Below are positions 13,168-20,039 of a stretch of DNA of 23,824 nt, piece by piece (position 1 is the stretch's first letter; the number at the start of each line of letters is the position of its first letter). A program made the translations under genes and the position numbers. The notes under the pieces are model-generated. The model had not been told where the DNA came from. It was given only the letters and a program-made list of their open reading frames with translations, and ran no database searches. This DNA comes from Capsulimonadales bacterium (GTDB lineage: Bacteria; Armatimonadota; Armatimonadia; Armatimonadales; Armatimonadaceae): contig JANRLW010000128.1 of NCBI GenBank assembly GCA_033762295.1, forward strand, positions 1 through 23,824. The letters run 5' to 3'.

Positions 13168-14307
13168 ATGCCCGTTTCTCGTGTTCGCGTTGCCGCAGCA
13201 ACGGCGTGCAGTGTCGCCGCCCTTGGCGCCCTCATGTCGGCCCGCGCCGACGCCGCCTTCGACATCAACCTGATCGCTCCCTCCGGAATCAACCCCCTGG
13301 CGCTGCAAGGATTCCAACAGGCCGCCGCTCTCTGGGAGAGTGTTTTCACCGACGACATCACGGTCAACATTCAGATCGACTTTGCCGCACTTGGTCCGGG
13401 CGTACTCGGGTCGACGAACCCGTTCGGCGATAAGGACAATAACGATACGTCCTTTATCGCGTCGTATGCACAACTGCGAAACGCGCTGGGAAACGACGCG
13501 ACCTCGGTCGAGGATGGAACGGCGGTTGCCAACCTGCAGACCGGAAACTCGCTGAATTTCGTCACCAATAATTCGGCGGGGGCATCCGTTGTCGACACCG
13601 ATGGCAGTAACAACAATTCCCTGTTCCAGTTGTCCGGCGCGAACGCCAAAGCGCTCGGACTGATCGCCGGCAATGATGCGCAGGTTGACGCCTTTATTGC
13701 GTTCAGTACGGGTTTCTCCTTCGACTTCGATCCGACGAACGGGATCAATGGAAGCCAGTTTGACTTCGTCGGGATCGCCGCGCACGAAATCGGGCATGCT
13801 CTCGGTTTTGTCAGCGGGGTGGATTTCGTGGATTATCTCTCCGGCCCTAACCTTCTGCCCGGGCAGACCGCGACGAACCTGAATAACTTCGCGGTTTTCA
13901 ACCCGCTCGATCTGTTCCGTTACAGCAATTCCGCTCTGACCCTGTTCAACGGAAACCGCATTCAGGACCTGCGCCAGGGGCGTGACTCCTCCGGGACCAC
14001 CATCACCCCGTTCTTTTCGCTCGATGGCACCACGGAACTGGTCCGGTTTGCCACCGGTCTCTTCGACGGGGATGGTCGCCAGGCGAGCCACTGGAAGGAT
14101 AACCTGGGGCTGGGAATCATGGACCCGACCGCCGGACCGGGCGAGCGATTGCAGGTCGGCGCGAACGATCTGCTGGCCTTCGATGTGATCGGTTATAACC
14201 TTCCGCGCCTTGCCGCCGCCGCGCCGGTACCGGGAACGCTCGCTCTGCTGTCTCTCCCGCTGGTCGGCATAGTTCTCCGCCGCCGGAAGCGGAACCCCGC
14301 TCACTAG
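13168..14307 (+). CDS. Exported Zn-metalloprotease-like surface protein with a PEP-CTERM-like sorting signal
   Basis: Signal peptide ending ARADA; AHEIGHALGFVSG (HExxH at 13783-13797); ASHWKD; C-terminus APVPGTLALLSLPLVGIVLRRRKR. AAGGA RBS. Confidence 0.82.
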   Translation: MPVSRVRVAAATACSVAALGALMSARADAAFDINLIAPSGINPLALQGFQQAAALWESVFTDDITVNIQIDFAALGPGVLGSTNPFGDKDNNDTSFIASYAQLRNALGNDATSVEDGTAVANLQTGNSLNFVTNNSAGASVVDTDGSNNNSLFQLSGANAKALGLIAGNDAQVDAFIAFSTGFSFDFDPTNGINGSQFDFVGIAAHEIGHALGFVSGVDFVDYLSGPNLLPGQTATNLNNFAVFNPLDLFRYSNSALTLFNGNRIQDLRQGRDSSGTTITPFFSLDGTTELVRFATGLFDGDGRQASHWKDNLGLGIMDPTAGPGERLQVGANDLLAFDVIGYNLPRLAAAAPVPGTLALLSLPLVGIVLRRRKRNPAH

Positions 14308-14326: not shown

Positions 14327-14363
14327 AAACGTCCGGGCGGAGGACACCGCCCGGACGTTTTTT
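14327..14363 (+). terminator. Rho-independent terminator, possibly bidirectional
   Basis: AAACGTCCGGGCGG-aggaca-CCGCCCGGACGTTT followed by TTT, lying between convergent genes. Confidence 0.85.
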
Positions 14364-14376
14364 CGTTCGATCGAGC

Positions 14377-15780
14377 CTAATGGGCCGTGACCGATGCCGA
14401 AACCACCGGTTTGGAGGAATGATCGGGCGACGGTGCGGCCAGAGTCGCCAAATACTCCGCCAGTCCGTTGACCTCCTCCGGCGTTCCGACCAGCGGCGGC
14501 ATGTACCGGGCGTACGGCGAGTCCGGTTTCGGCTCGTGCAGCATTGTCAGCAGGGAGGCGATCGCCTCGGTATTGCGATCGGCCAGCAGACGGCGCATGG
14601 ACCGGTAACCGTCGTTCGTATGACAGTTCATACACTGCCCGCGATACATCGCTTCGCCGATTTTCAGGCTATCCCCGTCGGCGCGAGCCTTTTGCCCCCA
14701 GACCGACTGCGCCAGATAACCCTCCCGGTTGAACTTCTCGATCTCACTCACCCGGATACCGTTCGAGTACATATGCTGTCCGATCACGTACGGCTTGCGC
14801 AACGCTTCACGGGCATACTCGGTGGAGGCGGTCGCCGCGAGGGCGAGTCCGAGAACGGAAACGGCGTGTCCGATGGCGAAGTCCCGGGGCGATTTATAGG
14901 CGAAGAAGTAGACGACCGCCGAAATGGTGAACGTCGTCATGACCGAGAGCAGTACAATGCGGGTAATCTGCGTGAACGCGCCCGAACCGATGGTCGACAT
15001 ACCGAGTTGCAGCAGCCCGCGGTTCGAAGCGGGGACGTTCGCCATGAACCAGAGCATGCAGACCGGCATCAGCAGGAAGGCGGGAATCAGCCAGGAGGCG
15101 CTCCAGCGGATCAGAGTGACTTTGGTCCGTTCGAATTGCGGAGCCTGCAGCCGGGACAGCGTCACCAGCGCCCAGACACCCGCCAGCGACGTGCAGACCA
15201 GCACCCGAAGTAACAGAGACGGCCAGTAGGTCGGGTTGAAGAAGGCATACCAGAACTTGCTCGCTTCCTGACCGGTTCCGGCGACCGAGAGCCAGGTCTG
15301 GCCGGGGGTCAGCATGAAGGTCAGGATGCCGTTGATAATGACCAGAGTCAGAATCGAGGCTCCGGCATAGATGTAACCGACCGTGAGGTGCGTTTTGTCG
15401 TCAATCCGTCGCCAGGTGTAGTAGTACACGGCGGCGGCGGTCAGTTCGACAATAAAGAACACCCATTCGATCGCCCAGCCGAACACGAAGTTATGGATCA
15501 GGGTGCTCGTCGCCTCCGGGTGCGCGAGGCCGATGGCGAACCAGATTCCGACCCCGGAGACCGCGCCGAACACGCCGGTGAGGATCAGGAAGAACTTCGA
15601 GTGCTTCTCCAGAATCGGAAGCCAGTCCCGTCGGTTCTCCTTTAGCGCCTTGTGTTCCGCCAGGGCGAGGTAAAGGCCGCCGCCGACAGCGAAATGGGAG
15701 ATCATGACATGGTAGATGGCGATGAGGCCGATCACCCACGTGCTCCCGATCACGGGTACGTCCCAGAAAGGATAGTTCAT
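14377..15780 (-). CDS. Cytochrome bd subunit I-like (CydA-like) membrane protein fused to a C-terminal monoheme cytochrome c
   Basis: IYHVMISHFAVGGG, GAVSGVGIWF, WAIEWVFFIVE, FFNPTYWP and EYAREALRKPYVI parallel CydA motifs; C-terminal CMNCH followed by YMPP. Confidence 0.78.
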   Translation of the reverse strand: MNYPFWDVPVIGSTWVIGLIAIYHVMISHFAVGGGLYLALAEHKALKENRRDWLPILEKHSKFFLILTGVFGAVSGVGIWFAIGLAHPEATSTLIHNFVFGWAIEWVFFIVELTAAAVYYYTWRRIDDKTHLTVGYIYAGASILTLVIINGILTFMLTPGQTWLSVAGTGQEASKFWYAFFNPTYWPSLLLRVLVCTSLAGVWALVTLSRLQAPQFERTKVTLIRWSASWLIPAFLLMPVCMLWFMANVPASNRGLLQLGMSTIGSGAFTQITRIVLLSVMTTFTISAVVYFFAYKSPRDFAIGHAVSVLGLALAATASTEYAREALRKPYVIGQHMYSNGIRVSEIEKFNREGYLAQSVWGQKARADGDSLKIGEAMYRGQCMNCHTNDGYRSMRRLLADRNTEAIASLLTMLHEPKPDSPYARYMPPLVGTPEEVNGLAEYLATLAAPSPDHSSKPVVSASVTAH

Positions 15781-15849
15781 CGTTTTTTGCTCCGCGGTTA
15801 CCGGCGATCACGGATGGCTGTCGCCGGTAACCCTTCCACCGAAGTCCTT

Positions 15850-16983
15850 CTAATGCAGCGCCAGGTAGCCCCACGCCGTCGTCACCAACAGAATTCCAAG
15901 GGCGAGGAGACCGAAGTAGGTCGCCCACTTTGCCCGGTTTCCTCCCGCCTGCTTCGTATCGAAGAAGGGGATGATCGTCCACAGGACCAGACCCAGGGTA
16001 AAGATCACCATTCCGAGTCCTTCGCCGATTGCGCCGGGGATCAGGTTTCCGACGACCTTCAGTGTCTGGAAGGGGGACATGAAATACCACTCGGGGTGGA
16101 TGCCTGCCGGCGCGGCGGCGATCGGGTCCGCGGGTTTTCCGAGCTGCCAGGGATAGAGGGACGCCAGCATCGCGATCACGTTGAGCGTGATCAGCCACAT
16201 CGCCAGATCCTTCATCAGGAAGTTCGGGAAAAACGGAATCGATTTTCGTTCCGAGGCCGGTTTCTCCTCTTCGGACGGCGGCAGGGCGTTGCCATGTTTC
16301 TGCACCAGGAACAGGTGGAAACCGAGGAGCGGCAGGTAGCAGAGCGGCAGAATGACCGCGTGCAGGGCGAAGAACCGCTGAACGGTAAACTCGGAAACCT
16401 CGAGTCCGCCCCGGAACAGATTGGCGATCGGCGCGCCGATCACCGGCAGTGCGTTCGGGATCTCCAGGCCGACTTTGGTGGCGAAAAAGGCCAGTTCGTC
16501 CATCGGCAGCAGGTAACCGCTGAAACCGAACAGCAAACCGAGAATCAGGAGCGCCATTCCGCTCCACCAGCCGAACTCACGGGGTTTCCGGTAACCCTTC
16601 ATAAAGTACACCGAAAACATATGGATGAAGATCGACGCGATGAAGAGGTTGGCGGACCAGTTATGGACCGACCGGATCAGCCAGCCGAAGTGGATATCGT
16701 ATGTGATCTGGCGGACGGACTCATAGGCGTCCGGACCCGGACGGTAATAGACCAGTAGCAGGATTCCGGAAAACGCCTGGATGAGGAAGCAGAACAGGGA
16801 GATCCCGCCCCAGTAGTACCAGAACGATTGGCGGTGGACCGGAACCGTCTTGTGTTTGCCGAGTTCGACGAGGGTGTTGAGGTCCAGGCGTTCGTCCACC
16901 CAGCCGTAAATCTTCGCGCCCACGCCCGTTTTTTTCTCCGGCGCCGCAGGACGGGCGGCGTCATTTTTGATACCGGTAACCAT
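15850..16983 (-). CDS. Cytochrome b of a Rieske/cytochrome b complex (unsplit)
   Basis: YYWGGISL; heme His pairs RSVHNWSANLFIASIFIHMF and FFALHAVILP...GFHLFLV; FSGYLLP; PEWY motif. ATG 16983 with AAGGAG RBS. Confidence 0.93.
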   Translation of the reverse strand: MVTGIKNDAARPAAPEKKTGVGAKIYGWVDERLDLNTLVELGKHKTVPVHRQSFWYYWGGISLFCFLIQAFSGILLLVYYRPGPDAYESVRQITYDIHFGWLIRSVHNWSANLFIASIFIHMFSVYFMKGYRKPREFGWWSGMALLILGLLFGFSGYLLPMDELAFFATKVGLEIPNALPVIGAPIANLFRGGLEVSEFTVQRFFALHAVILPLCYLPLLGFHLFLVQKHGNALPPSEEEKPASERKSIPFFPNFLMKDLAMWLITLNVIAMLASLYPWQLGKPADPIAAAPAGIHPEWYFMSPFQTLKVVGNLIPGAIGEGLGMVIFTLGLVLWTIIPFFDTKQAGGNRAKWATYFGLLALGILLVTTAWGYLALH

Positions 16984-17003
16984 CGAAAACTCCTTCAAAA
17001 GGG

Positions 17004-17567
17004 CTAAGCGCGTGAGACCACCACCGACCCCGGCGAAACCTTGGCAACGAAGGTGGGCAGCGGTTTGGGCGGCGGACCGGCGATATTCTTTCCGGTTTTG
17101 GCGTCGTATACTCCCCCATGGCAGGCGCACGTGATCGCCTTCCGGTTCGGATCGAACTGCACGGTGCAGGCGAGGTGGGTGCAGACCGCCGAAAATGCCG
17201 TCCAGGAATCGTCGTCGTGGTGGATGAGAACGGCGGGCGATACCCCGAATTTGAACATCAGGGCGCTGCCCCGGGGCAGTTTATCCGCGTCCTTCAGGGT
17301 CACTTCATGTACGGCGGAGGCGGCCTGAGACTTTTCGACGGGCGAATTCAGGAACCGGTAGAGCGGATAGCCTACCGCGCCGCCGTACACCGCGCACATG
17401 CCACCGACGGCGATTTTCAGGAAACCGGCGCGGGACAGGCCGGCGGTCTCCTCCGGATCTTCGGCATCCTCCGCCGGGTCGGTCATCGGCTCGCGCCGTG
17501 CCGTCATATCTTCGTCCTGCTCGGCGGTCCGGTTCTGCGACAGGGCAGGGGATATGGTGTTGCTCAT
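17004..17567 (-). CDS. Rieske 2Fe-2S protein of a bc-type complex
   Basis: CTHLAC and CACHGGVY boxes, GPPPKPL, Tat-like anchor SRAGFLK. ATGA overlap with the upstream gene and GAGGAGG RBS. Confidence 0.93.
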   Translation of the reverse strand: MSNTISPALSQNRTAEQDEDMTARREPMTDPAEDAEDPEETAGLSRAGFLKIAVGGMCAVYGGAVGYPLYRFLNSPVEKSQAASAVHEVTLKDADKLPRGSALMFKFGVSPAVLIHHDDDSWTAFSAVCTHLACTVQFDPNRKAITCACHGGVYDAKTGKNIAGPPPKPLPTFVAKVSPGSVVVSRA

Positions 17568-18718
17568 GCGATTAAAGCCTCCTCGGTAAACACGACCGGT
17601 TCCACCGGCGCCGCCTCCGATCGGGGAGCGGCGCGCAGGGCGACGGCGGCCAGCCAGCCGATGACGCCCAGGCCGGCGACCAGTAACAACAGGAACAGAG
17701 CGATGACCGACCAGTTGGAGACCACCTCTCTCTGCCAGACATCGAATCCCTTACTCAGCAGGGTCACATCGCGGATGCCATCCCGGTAGATCACCTGACC
17801 GGCAACGGCGACGACCGCTCCGAGCGCTCCGCCGATCGGAGCCAGGAGTCCGCCTTTGCCCGTCAATCCGAGCAGCGAGGTGGCAAGGACCAGCGCCAGA
17901 CCGACCAGACAGGCAATGCCGGAGATCAGGAACAGCGGGGAAGCGTTCACGGAGGCGATAATGCCCTCCGGCTGTGAAGCCTGGACGACGAAGGCGAGAG
18001 CGATTTGTGCGCCCGCACCGACCACCGACAGGACACTTCCGACCCGGCTCAATAGCGACCTGACGTCGGCGGAGAGCGACTTCGCCAGGGAGACCAGCAC
18101 GAGGCCCAGACCACCGAGGGTCAGTCCGCCGGCCAGCACGAACAGGAACCGGGGGGCCATGGTCGGGTCACGCGGCGGCGTCTGCAGTCCGAGGGCGGTC
18201 CGGGAGTACATCTCCTGCCAGACGTCCGGACGCAGCATCAGGGTCATGTTGAACGCATAAATCTGACCGATCGTCAGGGTCAGAAGCAGAGCGGCCAGTC
18301 CCCAGGTCCAGCCGGCCCGTCCTTTTTCAATGCGGTCGGTCATCCGGTAGAGGAAGAAATAGGCGAAGGTCAAAATCGGAATGACCGCGATCCAGAGAAC
18401 GCCGATCAGGACGCTGCTGGTGTAGAGGGCGCGACCGTAAAGGACCTGCGCGAAGAGAAGCGGAGGGATGCCGAAGTTAATGACGTAGGTCATTACCACC
18501 GGAAGACGCCGGGAGAGGGCGAGCGATGCCGAAAGGAACGCCGCGCGCGCCGGGCCGTTCTGCCGGCCGCCCAGGAAGTTCAGGGCGCAGGCTGCCAGAA
18601 GACCGCCCAGAAAGAGCTGGAGGGCGATGAAGTGCAGCGTCAATGTCAGCAGACTCAGCGCCTTCATCAGCCAGACGGGCGCCGGCAGTGGGATTGGGTC
18701 GACACCAGGAAACAGCAT
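17564..18718 (-). CDS. Polytopic membrane protein, probable second divergent CydA-like subunit
   Basis: About 9 hydrophobic segments; LTLHFIALQLFLGG and VINFGIPPLLFAQVLYG resemble CydA TM1/TM2. First gene of the respiratory operon. Confidence 0.65.
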   Translation of the reverse strand: MLFPGVDPIPLPAPVWLMKALSLLTLTLHFIALQLFLGGLLAACALNFLGGRQNGPARAAFLSASLALSRRLPVVMTYVINFGIPPLLFAQVLYGRALYTSSVLIGVLWIAVIPILTFAYFFLYRMTDRIEKGRAGWTWGLAALLLTLTIGQIYAFNMTLMLRPDVWQEMYSRTALGLQTPPRDPTMAPRFLFVLAGGLTLGGLGLVLVSLAKSLSADVRSLLSRVGSVLSVVGAGAQIALAFVVQASQPEGIIASVNASPLFLISGIACLVGLALVLATSLLGLTGKGGLLAPIGGALGAVVAVAGQVIYRDGIRDVTLLSKGFDVWQREVVSNWSVIALFLLLLVAGLGVIGWLAAVALRAAPRSEAAPVEPVVFTEEALIA

Positions 18719-18887
18719 AGGGTTATACCGCCTGCCACTAGAATTTTCGCCGACGGAAACCGGGCGTTCCCGCGGGCTTTGTTCCTATTTTCACGGACAA
18801 GCGTCCGACGAGAATCCCCGGTTTAGCCGATTATTCAAAGGAAGGAAACGGCATGCCGATCAGGAAAAGACTTTCGGAGGCGTCCGT

Positions 18888-20039
18888 ATGCCACTTTCGT
18901 CGTTCGTTCAAAAAGAGTTTGCGATCGGTTTCTGGGTGGAACCGCCGTTCGATCGGCGTGCCGAAGCGCGTTATCGGGAAATCAAGGAGGCAGGTTTCAA
19001 TCTGGTGCTTGCCGGGTTCTCCGGGGCGGAACCGACCGCTCTGGTCCGTGTACTCCGGCGAACGGGTTTGAACGCCATCGTGACCGCCAAGGGGGACGTT
19101 TTTACCGATTGGCCCGATGATCCGGTCGTTCTTGGTTACTCCCTGAGGGACGAACCGGGGGCGGCGGACTTTCCGGCCCTGAAAACCCGTGTCGAGGCGG
19201 TTCGCCGGGAACGGCCGGGGCGGCTCGGCTATATCAACCTGTTTCCCAACTATGCCAGCCCGGCCCAGCTCGGGGCGCCGACCTATGAGGAATATGTACG
19301 GCGGTTCCTCGACGAGGTGCGGCCCGATGTCCTTTCGATGGATCATTACCCGATTTTTCTTCCGGACCGGGATGGGAGGGACCGTTACTGCGAGAACCTG
19401 GCGACGATGCGGGAGCACAGCCTGCGCGCGCGAGTCCCGTTCTGGAACTTCTTTAATTCCATGCCGTACGGGCCGCATACCGATCCGACCGAGGCGCAGT
19501 TACGCTGGCAGGTCTTCGCGTCGCTCTGTTACGGCGCGAAGGGCGTTCTGTACTTCTGTTATTTCACGCCGCGCGGGGACGAGTTTCCGAAAGGCGGGGC
19601 GATCATCGCCACGGACGGAACGAAAACGCGGCATTATGCCCACGCACAGCGGATTAACGCCCTGCTGAAAGCCTACGGGCCGACTCTGATGCGAACGACG
19701 ACTACCGGCGTATACCGCGTAGGACCGACCGACCGGCCCGCCGATCTGTTGAAAGGCTCCGGAATCGTCGACCTCAAATCCGCCCCCGTCGATCCGCCGG
19801 GCGATTACCTGGTCGGTTCGTTCCGGCATCAGAGCGGTCGTCGCGCGGTGTTGCTGATGAACTACCGGTTCGCCTTCTCCGCCTGGCCGACGGTTGTGTT
19901 TGACGCCCCGGTCGAGGCGGTTCGGGAGGTCGATCCGACGACGGGCCGAGCGGTTCCGGTCCGGGACGATAGCCCGGATATGCCCGGCCTCCAGATTTCG
20001 CTGGCGGATGGCGAGGGGCGACTTTTCCTGTTGCCCTAG
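18888..20039 (+). CDS. Putative glycoside hydrolase (clan GH-A-like TIM barrel), no signal peptide
   Basis: EIKEAGFNLV, GYSLRDEP, YINLFP, LSMDHYP and YGAKGVLYFCY patterns. ATG 18888 with GGAGG RBS. Confidence 0.62.
   Translation: MPLSSFVQKEFAIGFWVEPPFDRRAEARYREIKEAGFNLVLAGFSGAEPTALVRVLRRTGLNAIVTAKGDVFTDWPDDPVVLGYSLRDEPGAADFPALKTRVEAVRRERPGRLGYINLFPNYASPAQLGAPTYEEYVRRFLDEVRPDVLSMDHYPIFLPDRDGRDRYCENLATMREHSLRARVPFWNFFNSMPYGPHTDPTEAQLRWQVFASLCYGAKGVLYFCYFTPRGDEFPKGGAIIATDGTKTRHYAHAQRINALLKAYGPTLMRTTTTGVYRVGPTDRPADLLKGSGIVDLKSAPVDPPGDYLVGSFRHQSGRRAVLLMNYRFAFSAWPTVVFDAPVEAVREVDPTTGRAVPVRDDSPDMPGLQISLADGEGRLFLLP

Follow-up and report, generated by a model that had tools for sequence, protein, structure and literature searches.

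Cytochrome bd oxidases are, in the textbook view, quinol oxidases that bypass complex III. A four-gene operon of a Capsulimonadales bacterium (assembly GCA_033762295.1, contig JANRLW010000128.1, positions 14377 to 18718, minus strand) raises the question of whether a bd-type site can also be fed through a Rieske/cytochrome b unit. The stretch of DNA analysed, called the window below, is the whole of this contig (23,824 nucleotides; C128 of an assembly of 5.16 Mb with 94.5% completeness). The operon encodes, in this order, a 384-residue membrane protein that we call P1, a Rieske protein, a cytochrome b, and P4, a CydA-like protein fused to a cytochrome c domain. Its conserved gene order, the predicted folds of its proteins and a natural gene fusion between two of its parts suggest that the cassette probably works as one hard-wired respiratory machine.

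The four open reading frames (ORFs) all run in the same direction. P1 (17564-18718) is the first gene, and its stop codon is joined by an ATGA overlap to the start of the Rieske gene (17004-17567, 187 amino acids (aa)). After a gap of about 20 nucleotides (nt) follows the cytochrome b gene (15850-16983, 377 aa), for which the ATG at 16983 is the most likely start, the longest ORF beginning at 17130. The P4 gene (14377-15780, 467 aa) lies 69 nt further downstream, and 17 nt past its stop begins an intrinsic-terminator-like hairpin (14327-14360, minus strand) with a 14-bp stem containing 10 G-C pairs. Terminator-like sites as a class were not enriched in the region (6 found, 4.9 expected); the hairpin after P4 is by far the strongest of them and is correctly positioned. 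Pfam searches and inspection for CxxCH motifs revealed neither a separate c1-type cytochrome nor a CydB among the four proteins, the sole CxxCH being that of P4. An earlier note, made from the letters of this DNA alone, had described four co-directional genes ending at one terminator, an ATGA overlap between the membrane-protein and Rieske genes, and the lack of cytochrome c1 and of a canonical cydB in the operon; all three descriptions were borne out.

The survey of operon conservation that the earlier note had proposed showed that the four genes are conserved together. When one genome per species was scanned with P4, 597 of the 599 matched stretches that were listed contained P4 relatives, which thus occur in at least 597 species genomes. 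Eighty loci, from at least 599 matched stretches, were kept for the analysis of synteny by tblastn. The order P1-Rieske-cytochrome b-P4, on one strand, was present in 73 of the 80 loci, and in the remaining seven (L008, L010, L025, L034, L043, L076, and L078) the contig breaks off just upstream. The same gene order appeared in 17 of 20 metagenome loci examined. By record title the carriers are Acidobacteriota (many), Verrucomicrobiota, Armatimonadota, Chloroherpetonaceae, Thermochlorobacter, Hydrogenedentota, and Sumerlaeia, and the cassette is common in soil and freshwater bacteria. A cluster with 73% identity to P4 of the window contains a protein of Armatimonas rosea (WP_184193641.1), which makes this species, presumably an aerobe, a cultured carrier of close homologues. 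All-against-all clustering of the ORFs in the 80 loci revealed no conserved accessory gene, no neighbour being common to more than 28 loci. Genes of haem-copper oxidases or of alternative complex III (ACIII) were absent within 7 kb of the cassette: matches to COX1-4, ActC, ActD, and SCO were found in 0 of the 80 loci, with a positive control that worked, and a linkage of the cassette to a haem-copper oxidase was rejected. In Acidobacteriaceae, bc1-caa3 'superoperons' have been described (Trojan et al. 2021, PMC8407424).

The membrane domain of P4 (14761-15780, minus strand; aa 1-340, eight helices) matched the CydA family PF01654 with an E value of 9.8e-16 and 57.8 bits (cut-off 26.2), aa 15-213 aligning with profile positions 4-200 of 418. 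It is followed by a periplasmic monohaem cytochrome c domain (14437-14751, minus strand; aa ~344-448), with the haem-binding residues C383-x-x-C386-H387 in a single CMNCH motif, and M427. The match of P4 to the cytochrome c family PF13442 (E 3.3e-4, 21.4 bits) stayed below the cut-off of 27, which is passed by P4 homologues of the two-gene cassettes considered below (34-37 bits). The structural model of P4, with a mean predicted local distance difference test (pLDDT) of 76.6, shows eight long helices and then a helical domain at aa 344-448. A VIA search gave Z 25.4 to 5ir6_A, a CydA chain (root-mean-square deviation (rmsd) 4.0, 328 residues aligned), Z 19.1 to AppB, and at most 11.1 to unrelated chains. 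Residue equivalences were taken from an alignment of the P4-homologue profile with solved CydA/AppC chains (7d5i_A, 7ose_A). By this alignment H24, E105, E112, and H131 of P4 correspond to H19, E99, E107, and H126 of E. coli CydA, with the spacing of the two glutamates one residue shorter, and L191/R192 occupy the position of the b558 ligand H186, which is not conserved. P4 has neither a Q-loop nor the haem b558 histidine. H24, E105, E112, and H131 did not vary across the 29 four-gene P4 rows or the 11 more distant P4-like rows; these 40 rows all retain R192, E321, R324, E325, R328, and K329, as well as the haem c residues C383, C386, H387, and M427. The current annotation of P4 is 'cytochrome ubiquinol oxidase subunit I', whereas that of P1 is a hypothetical protein.

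P1 belongs to no family in Pfam or NCBIfam. It matched neither PF02322 (CydB) nor PF01654 in Pfam, and judged by a PF01654 match it is not a member of the cytochrome bd superfamily. A sequence link between P1 and P4 was tried and rejected (BLASTP E 0.21; hhalign profile-profile probability 0.5%), and the relation between them is one of fold. An AlphaFold2 model of P1, built from a 34-row alignment (pLDDT 85.4, predicted template modelling score (pTM) 0.84), has nine helices, and 20 of its 21 top Foldseek matches in the PDB were CydA or CydB chains. An exhaustive VIA search gave Z 27.3 to 5ir6_A, the Geobacillus CydA (rmsd 3.4, 325 residues aligned), 25.6 to E. coli CydA, and 24.4 to the AppB chain 7ose_B. 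The next tier consisted of NrfD-like ACIII and PsrC subunits (Z 15-17), and unrelated chains reached at most 9.2. By its model, P1 has the bd-subunit fold, that is, the membrane fold of two four-helix bundles found in CydA and CydB, and is placed in a subunit-II role. The bd fold, whose lack in either membrane protein the earlier note had named as fatal to its proposal, is thus predicted in both. Its phrase 'two CydA-like subunits' held for P4 in sequence and in fold; for P1 it held in fold and failed in sequence.

A histidine in helix 1 of P1, H29, was present in every one of the 28 four-gene rows and the 13 variant rows. It may be the equivalent of CydA H19, judged only from the offsets of structural alignment ranges. 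P1 lacks the glutamate pair. A profile search against 1.84 billion representatives returned 1468 clusters with P1 relatives at E<=1e-3, 1059 at 1e-10, and 412 at 1e-30, and in the ESM Atlas the nearest P1 clusters are named 'hypothetical protein' and have no common Pfam family. One 560-aa protein from a single metagenome contig (P0343) joins a P1-like part to a C-terminal Tll0287-like domain (PF11845, E 3.3e-28).

The Rieske protein matched PF00355 (E 2.9e-13) and, in the PDB, 8hn2_A best (E 1.3e-18). It has the cluster boxes CTHLAC and CACHG and an N-terminal membrane anchor. The sequence following on the second box, CHGGVYD, recurs in the Rieske chains 3fou and 1nyk of Thermus and suggests a menaquinol-type, moderate potential. 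Cytochrome b matched PF00033 (E 1.5e-44) and PF00032 (E 8.5e-8), and phmmer aligned aa 23-233 with the b6 chain 6rqf_I (E 7.1e-55) and aa 250-343 with the subunit IV chain 7r0w_J (E 9.5e-8). It is of a fused b6 plus subunit-IV type, with four haem-ligand histidines and a PEWY motif read from the translation. The haem-ci cysteine is lacking: in all three alignments the b6 cysteine of '...FYC LGG' faces a tyrosine. With four histidines, the Qo-site PEWY, and the CxH...CxxH boxes all in place, the two proteins have, as far as their residues tell, what a Rieske/cytochrome b unit requires.

We then considered whether these parts are physically associated. Prediction of a complex between the membrane part of P4 (aa 1-345) and P1 gave interaction prediction scores from aligned errors (ipSAE) of 0.86, 0.89, and 0.89, with 0.00 for the best of three controls. 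Among solved complexes 116 of 157 reach the ipSAE mark, among mismatched pairs 2 of 215. The interface comprised 193-200 contacts, with an agreement of 86% or more between the runs, and the partner pLDDT did not fall below 86. The multimer prediction proposed in the earlier note thus came out, in its P4-P1 part, in favour of pairing, and P4 and P1 are predicted to form a heterodimer.

Stronger than this prediction is a natural gene fusion in which the bd-like and Rieske parts are joined. In each of two representative proteins, P0254 (554 aa) and P0269 (556 aa), a Rieske domain comes after a complete P1-like part; the two are 44% identical from end to end. The P0254 cluster, named 'Rieske (2Fe-2S) protein [Verrucomicrobiota bacterium]' at NCBI, has 27 members, with sequences on 63, 32, 23, and fewer contigs each, and in the metagenome loci L107-L109 the fused ORF runs through without a stop. 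If P1 is oriented like CydA, as we assume, nine helices would put its C-terminus in the cytoplasm, where the Rieske anchor begins, and the topology of the fusion fits. The fused P1 parts form one clade nested within Verrucomicrobiota four-gene rows (Shimodaira-Hasegawa approximate likelihood ratio test (SH-aLRT) 96-100), which points to a single old fusion event derived from the four-gene type. In L107 (4501-7535) and L108, P4 starts 27 nt past the fused gene and the locus has no cytochrome b, and P4 of this lineage retains CMICH, YMPP, and the His/Glu residues. That cytochrome b left the operon while the Rieske protein became fused to subunit II hints at the bd-like module itself as the place where the Rieske head docks. 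A possible docking face comes from P1 itself. K19, Q249, D313, D317, W328, and N335, located at the chain start, at the end of helix 8, and in the loop that follows, were present in 26-28 of 28 four-gene rows versus 0-2 of 13 variant rows; given a CydA-like orientation these residues would be periplasmic.

Further proteins of the fused lineage are P0403 and P0411. Among 301 genomes of the phylum of L003 (record title Verrucomicrobiota), four cassette matches were found and none was fused. Apparent P1::Rieske fusions in ten genome loci, where tblastn high-scoring segment pairs span both genes, were rejected because each locus contains one in-frame stop. An apparent P4::P1 fusion (P0377) is confined to a single contig, has an Arg-rich linker, and is probably a frameshift artefact.

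The relation of the cassette to simpler arrangements was examined in 301 genomes of the window's own phylum, searched with P1 and P4 profiles. P1 was found in 66 and P4 in 64 of them, and all 64 genomes with P4 have P1. By coordinates 16 genomes, including the window's own, carry the four-gene type, and a cytochrome b match lies between P1 and P4 in all 16; in G231 a four-gene cassette is split over two contigs. In other genomes of the sample, P4-like and P1-like genes are adjacent (mostly P4 then P1), stand as P1 then P4, or are unlinked. Fourteen loci of these two-gene or variant types were inspected, and one (L099, G129) proved to be a true four-gene cassette. In the remaining 13 the P4-like genes are 30-47% identical to P4 of the window, with one CxxCH each, and their partner genes are 26-37% identical to P1, with no CxxCH and no Pfam family; no Rieske/b gene was found near the pair in any of the 13. 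In 12 of these 13 loci P1 was homologous to the partner adjacent to the P4-like gene (tblastn E 1e-13 to 1e-40). Genomes with two-gene cassettes have cytochrome b genes elsewhere, as in G105 and G177. A pair of this kind has a name in the cytochrome bd superfamily: the genome-defined OR-C1 consists of OR-C1a and OR-C1b, which the main text of Murali, Gennis, Hemp 2021 (10.1101/2021.01.16.426971) describes as adjacent. Since the P4-like and P1-like genes are adjacent in the same manner, P4 probably matches OR-C1a and P1 would hold the place of OR-C1b, and the role of P1 is, on the model, OR-C1b-like.

In maximum-likelihood trees, the four-gene P4 (29 rows) and the four-gene P1 (28 rows) each formed one clan against the variants, with support of 100/100. 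Inside the four-gene clan, rows of different phyla are mixed with one another, a pattern that suggests a single origin of the linkage and later transfer, and P4 and P1 of the window lie nearest to Armatimonadota and Verrucomicrobiota rows. L001 (for P4) and L007 (for P1) were left out as wrong ORFs, and L027, a bad long row, was retained for P1. One family of the phylum sample, f31 (e.g. L095:5249-6217, G077), has P1 then P4 and no Rieske/b; its two genes are sometimes set apart by a gene for a DUF1559/N-methyl protein and sometimes lie on separate contigs, and its cytochrome b genes are open frames of about 800 aa. The best tree did not show the f31 type as sister to the four-gene clan, a relation that the approximately unbiased test did not reject (p-AU 0.204).

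The respiratory inventory of the genome bears on the partner of the Rieske/b unit. Within the genome, PF01654 and PF00033 each match only in the cassette, and a genome-wide search for CydB gave only a sub-threshold PF02322 match elsewhere (22.6 bits, cut-off 35.6). On another contig (G000:C34:27500-42000) lies a complete ACIII with multihaem ActA, ActB, NrfD-type ActC, ActD (E 1.3e-62), and a monohaem cytochrome c, followed by SCO1 and then by a caa3-type oxidase with cytochrome c fused to subunit II. The haem-copper oxidase therefore has its own quinol:cytochrome c feeder, and the Rieske/b unit would serve the bd-like pair. Four of the 16 four-gene genomes (G054, 98% complete; G043, 93%; G194, 91%; G069, 80%) have no COX1 match at E<=1e-3 and no CydB match. 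Either the cassette is the sole oxidase of these four, or they are anaerobes that use it otherwise.

From the gene content, the folds, the conserved ligand residues, the strict synteny, the predicted P4-P1 pairing, and the P1::Rieske fusion we infer a haem occupancy, an electron path, a single physical supercomplex, and O2 as the acceptor. In the reading that we prefer, and that on the sequence evidence we think somewhat better supported than its denial, the cassette would encode one membrane-bound quinol:O2 oxidoreductase of two modules, in which the Rieske centre feeds the haem c of P4 and the bd-type site. The first module would be a b6-type Rieske/cytochrome b unit lacking haem ci and c1 or f, which would oxidise (mena)quinol at its Qo site. 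The second would be the P4-P1 heterodimer, with P4 as a bd subunit I minus the quinol loop and the b558 ligand and plus a periplasmic haem c, and P1 as a bd-fold subunit II. The Rieske cluster would pass its high-potential electron to the haem c of P4, a haem that would take the place of cytochrome c1 and of haem b558 alike. The electron would then move on to a di-haem site held by His24 and Glu105, where O2 would be reduced with protons supplied through a Glu105/Glu112 channel. The outcome would be a copper-free terminal oxidase with a Q-cycle added to its bd-type site, and about 2 charges moved per electron versus 1. The architecture by itself, leaving the acceptor aside, we hold to be quite probable, and O2 as the acceptor would be the weaker link. 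To the full proposal, in which the (Rieske/b)-(bd-like) supercomplex is obligate, the oxidase is copper-free, the Q-cycle doubles the energy yield, and the cassette is the sole terminal oxidase of some lineages, we give tentative credence and lean slightly away from it.

The same architecture and path might serve another acceptor, such as NO, H2O2, or nitrite, in a detoxifying or anaerobic reductase. No residue examined is specific for O2, and canonical bd enzymes also react with NO and peroxide. The superfamily beyond the quinol oxidases is described in the main text of Murali et al. (10.1101/2021.01.16.426971) as functionally uncharacterised, and the 4 of 16 cassette genomes that have no other recognisable oxidase might be anaerobes. 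Yet P4 keeps the equivalents of H19, E99, E107, and H126, residues of the O2-reducing site, in every row, the neighbours of the cassette in the 80 loci include no conserved nitrogen-oxide or peroxide genes, and the carrier groups by record title are mostly Acidobacteriaceae, Armatimonadota, Verrucomicrobiota, and Chloroherpetonaceae, which we take to be aerobes for the most part; such an acceptor seems to us unlikely. A step less likely still, in our estimate, is that the cassette is the organism's plain complex III, with the haem c of P4 as a membrane-anchored substitute for c1 in the delivery of electrons to soluble cytochromes or to caa3 and the bd-like domains serving as haem-poor scaffolds. 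An operon that has no c1 or f subunit, that holds the only cytochrome b of the genome, and whose P4 has lost the b558 histidine would suit this role, and some Rieske/b complexes do use unusual c-type partners. However, an ACIII already stands directly upstream of the caa3 oxidase, no oxidase lies near the cassette in any of the 80 loci, and P4/P1 pairs also occur alone as two-gene cassettes with no Rieske/b nearby. The active-site His/Glu residues and the two-glutamate channel are, moreover, invariant at 30-47% identity, which is hard to explain for a scaffold.

The cassette might also encode a bc-type complex and, as an enzyme apart, a bd-like oxidase dependent on cytochrome c, the two being only co-transcribed, meeting by collision and forming no stable supercomplex. 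Two-gene P4/P1 cassettes do work without a linked Rieske/b unit, the cytochrome b genes lying elsewhere in genomes such as G105 and G177. What makes this improbable, and in our view the least likely of the alternatives, is the P1::Rieske fusion, kept on many contigs through divergence to 44% identity, together with an invariant gene order in which the bd-like subunits bracket the Rieske/b genes and with P1 residues conserved in the four-gene type only (K19, D313, D317, W328, N335). Several observations nevertheless weigh against a single quinol:O2 oxidoreductase. CydAB complexes being among the solved structures, the P4-P1 score may reflect likeness to them. The fused P1::Rieske lineage has no cytochrome b in its operon (L107, L108), so the association of Rieske and bd-like parts does not always travel with cytochrome b. 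The haem content of P4 would differ from that of a canonical bd enzyme, as judged from its missing b558 histidine. Past helix 5 the equivalence of P4 residues was not demonstrable by sequence, and a correspondence of E321/R324 to CydA E445/R448 was not shown by a phmmer search of aa 285-345 against the PDB, which returned only a chance match to a glutathione S-transferase. The Rieske protein of the window has SRAGFLK (17400-17450) where 58 of 73 homologues have the twin-arginine motif RRxF[LIVM]; its single-arginine form is seen also in L009 (Armatimonadetes). Finally, the four genomes lacking other oxidases could equally be anaerobes, with the cassette acting on something other than O2.

As OR-C1a is described in the main text of Murali et al. 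(10.1101/2021.01.16.426971), P4 resembles it: quinol-binding features are absent, the helices number about eight, the C-terminus carries a periplasmic CxxCH domain, and the equivalents of E99/E107 have a one-residue deletion between them. P1 resembles the 'b' subunit in that an H19-like histidine is retained and the two glutamates are not. The cassette differs from OR-C1 as given there in that P1 comes first and P4 last, with the Rieske and cytochrome b genes between them and the pair not adjacent, in that P1 is modelled with nine helices rather than eight and lacks a CxxCH, and in that the four-gene P4 and P1 form their own clans. In that main text the word 'Rieske' occurs 0 times, and 'bc1' once, in an unrelated sentence. 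CydAB/AppCB (6rko, 7ose, 5ir6) share with P4 and P1 the fold (Z 24-27), and with P4 the histidine of transmembrane helix 1, the two glutamates of transmembrane helix 3, and the H126 equivalent; a subunit I/II heterodimer is likewise predicted. P4 differs from them by lacking the Q-loop and the b558 histidine (L191/R192) and having a covalent haem c domain instead, and P1, as subunit II, by having no PF02322 match; the donor would presumably be the Rieske centre, not quinol.

The quinol-oxidising half is closest to the b6f complex (6rqf, 1vf5). Cytochrome b is nearest to b6 and continues into a subunit-IV-like part, with four histidines and PEWY, and the Rieske cluster boxes are canonical. Here b6 and subunit IV are fused in one 377-aa protein, the haem-ci cysteine is replaced by tyrosine, and, unlike in b6f or bc1, there is no gene for cytochrome f, c1, or a di-haem c, the sole c-type haem being on the bd-like subunit. 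The actinobacterial III2-IV2 complex (bcc-aa3; 6hwh, 7rh5) and ACIII-caa3 are alike in wiring a quinol module to an oxidase through a bound c-haem with no soluble carrier. In those cases the oxidase is of the haem-copper type, whereas that of the cassette would come from the copper-free bd superfamily; and for the cassette the association is derived from synteny and gene fusion, not from structure. In cable bacteria, a CydA homologue with a periplasmic cytochrome c domain has been proposed as an O2 reductase (BMC Genomics 2026, PMC13047784). The description given there matches P4 in a CydA-like part with a periplasm-facing cytochrome c and in hosts with a partial complex III (PetAB); it differs in that the protein is a separate gene in a metabolic model, and the likeness to P4 is one of description only.

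Searches of the full-text literature found no description or characterisation of the four-gene layout. The earlier note's remark that no characterised complex has this layout stands to that extent; it has to be amended in that the P4/P1 pair probably matches OR-C1a/OR-C1b, named from genomes in 2021. New here are the homology of P1 to the partner in two-gene cassettes, the clan structure, the P1::Rieske fusion, the form without cytochrome b, and the oxidase inventory. If the two-module oxidoreductase is real, a widespread enzyme that feeds a bd-type site through a Rieske/b Q-cycle would break the rule that bd enzymes bypass complex III, and copper-independent respiration would gain a higher energy yield. 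It would be a third wiring of quinol oxidation to O2 reduction beside bc1-aa3/cbb3 and ACIII-caa3, and the first with a copper-free oxidase. Oxygen metabolism would then be read differently from the genomes of abundant soil and freshwater Acidobacteriota, Verrucomicrobiota, and Armatimonadota.

Some minor features of the surveyed loci were recorded. In 14 of the 80 loci, all of Acidobacteriaceae (e.g. L035:6511-6906, L038:6555-6950), a gene for a 131-aa '23S rRNA-intervening sequence protein' (PF05635, E 1e-37 to 1e-38) lies between cytochrome b and P4, and in L038 (4542-5306) a short-chain dehydrogenase gene lies between the Rieske and cytochrome b genes; both look like hitch-hiking insertions. 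In G069 (C279:274-2108) the P4 matches fall in four pieces, from a broken gene or an assembly error. L023, titled Actinomycetota, is nearly the same as L026 (Blastocatellia) in P4 (branch lengths 0.014 and 0), and L002, titled 'uncultured archaeon', groups with Armatimonadota; both titles are probably binning or labelling errors in public records.

Upstream of P1 in the window, a promoter-like site (18830-18859, minus strand) with TCGGCA, an 18-nt spacer, and AATAAT matches 9 of 12 positions; with 1 such site found and 1.5 expected by chance, it is weak. The genes that flank the operon have no respiratory link. They comprise a tyrosyl-tRNA synthetase, an M3-like peptidase, and two ORFs on the plus strand with no Pfam family. 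One of these (18627-20039, 470 aa) is divergent from the operon and, as listed, overlaps the first 92 nt of P1, so that its true start is probably later. The other (13168-14307, 379 aa) has a signal-like N-terminal stretch and a C-terminal tail, ...PVPGTLALLSLPLVGIVLRRRKRN, which we take to resemble a PEP-CTERM sorting signal.

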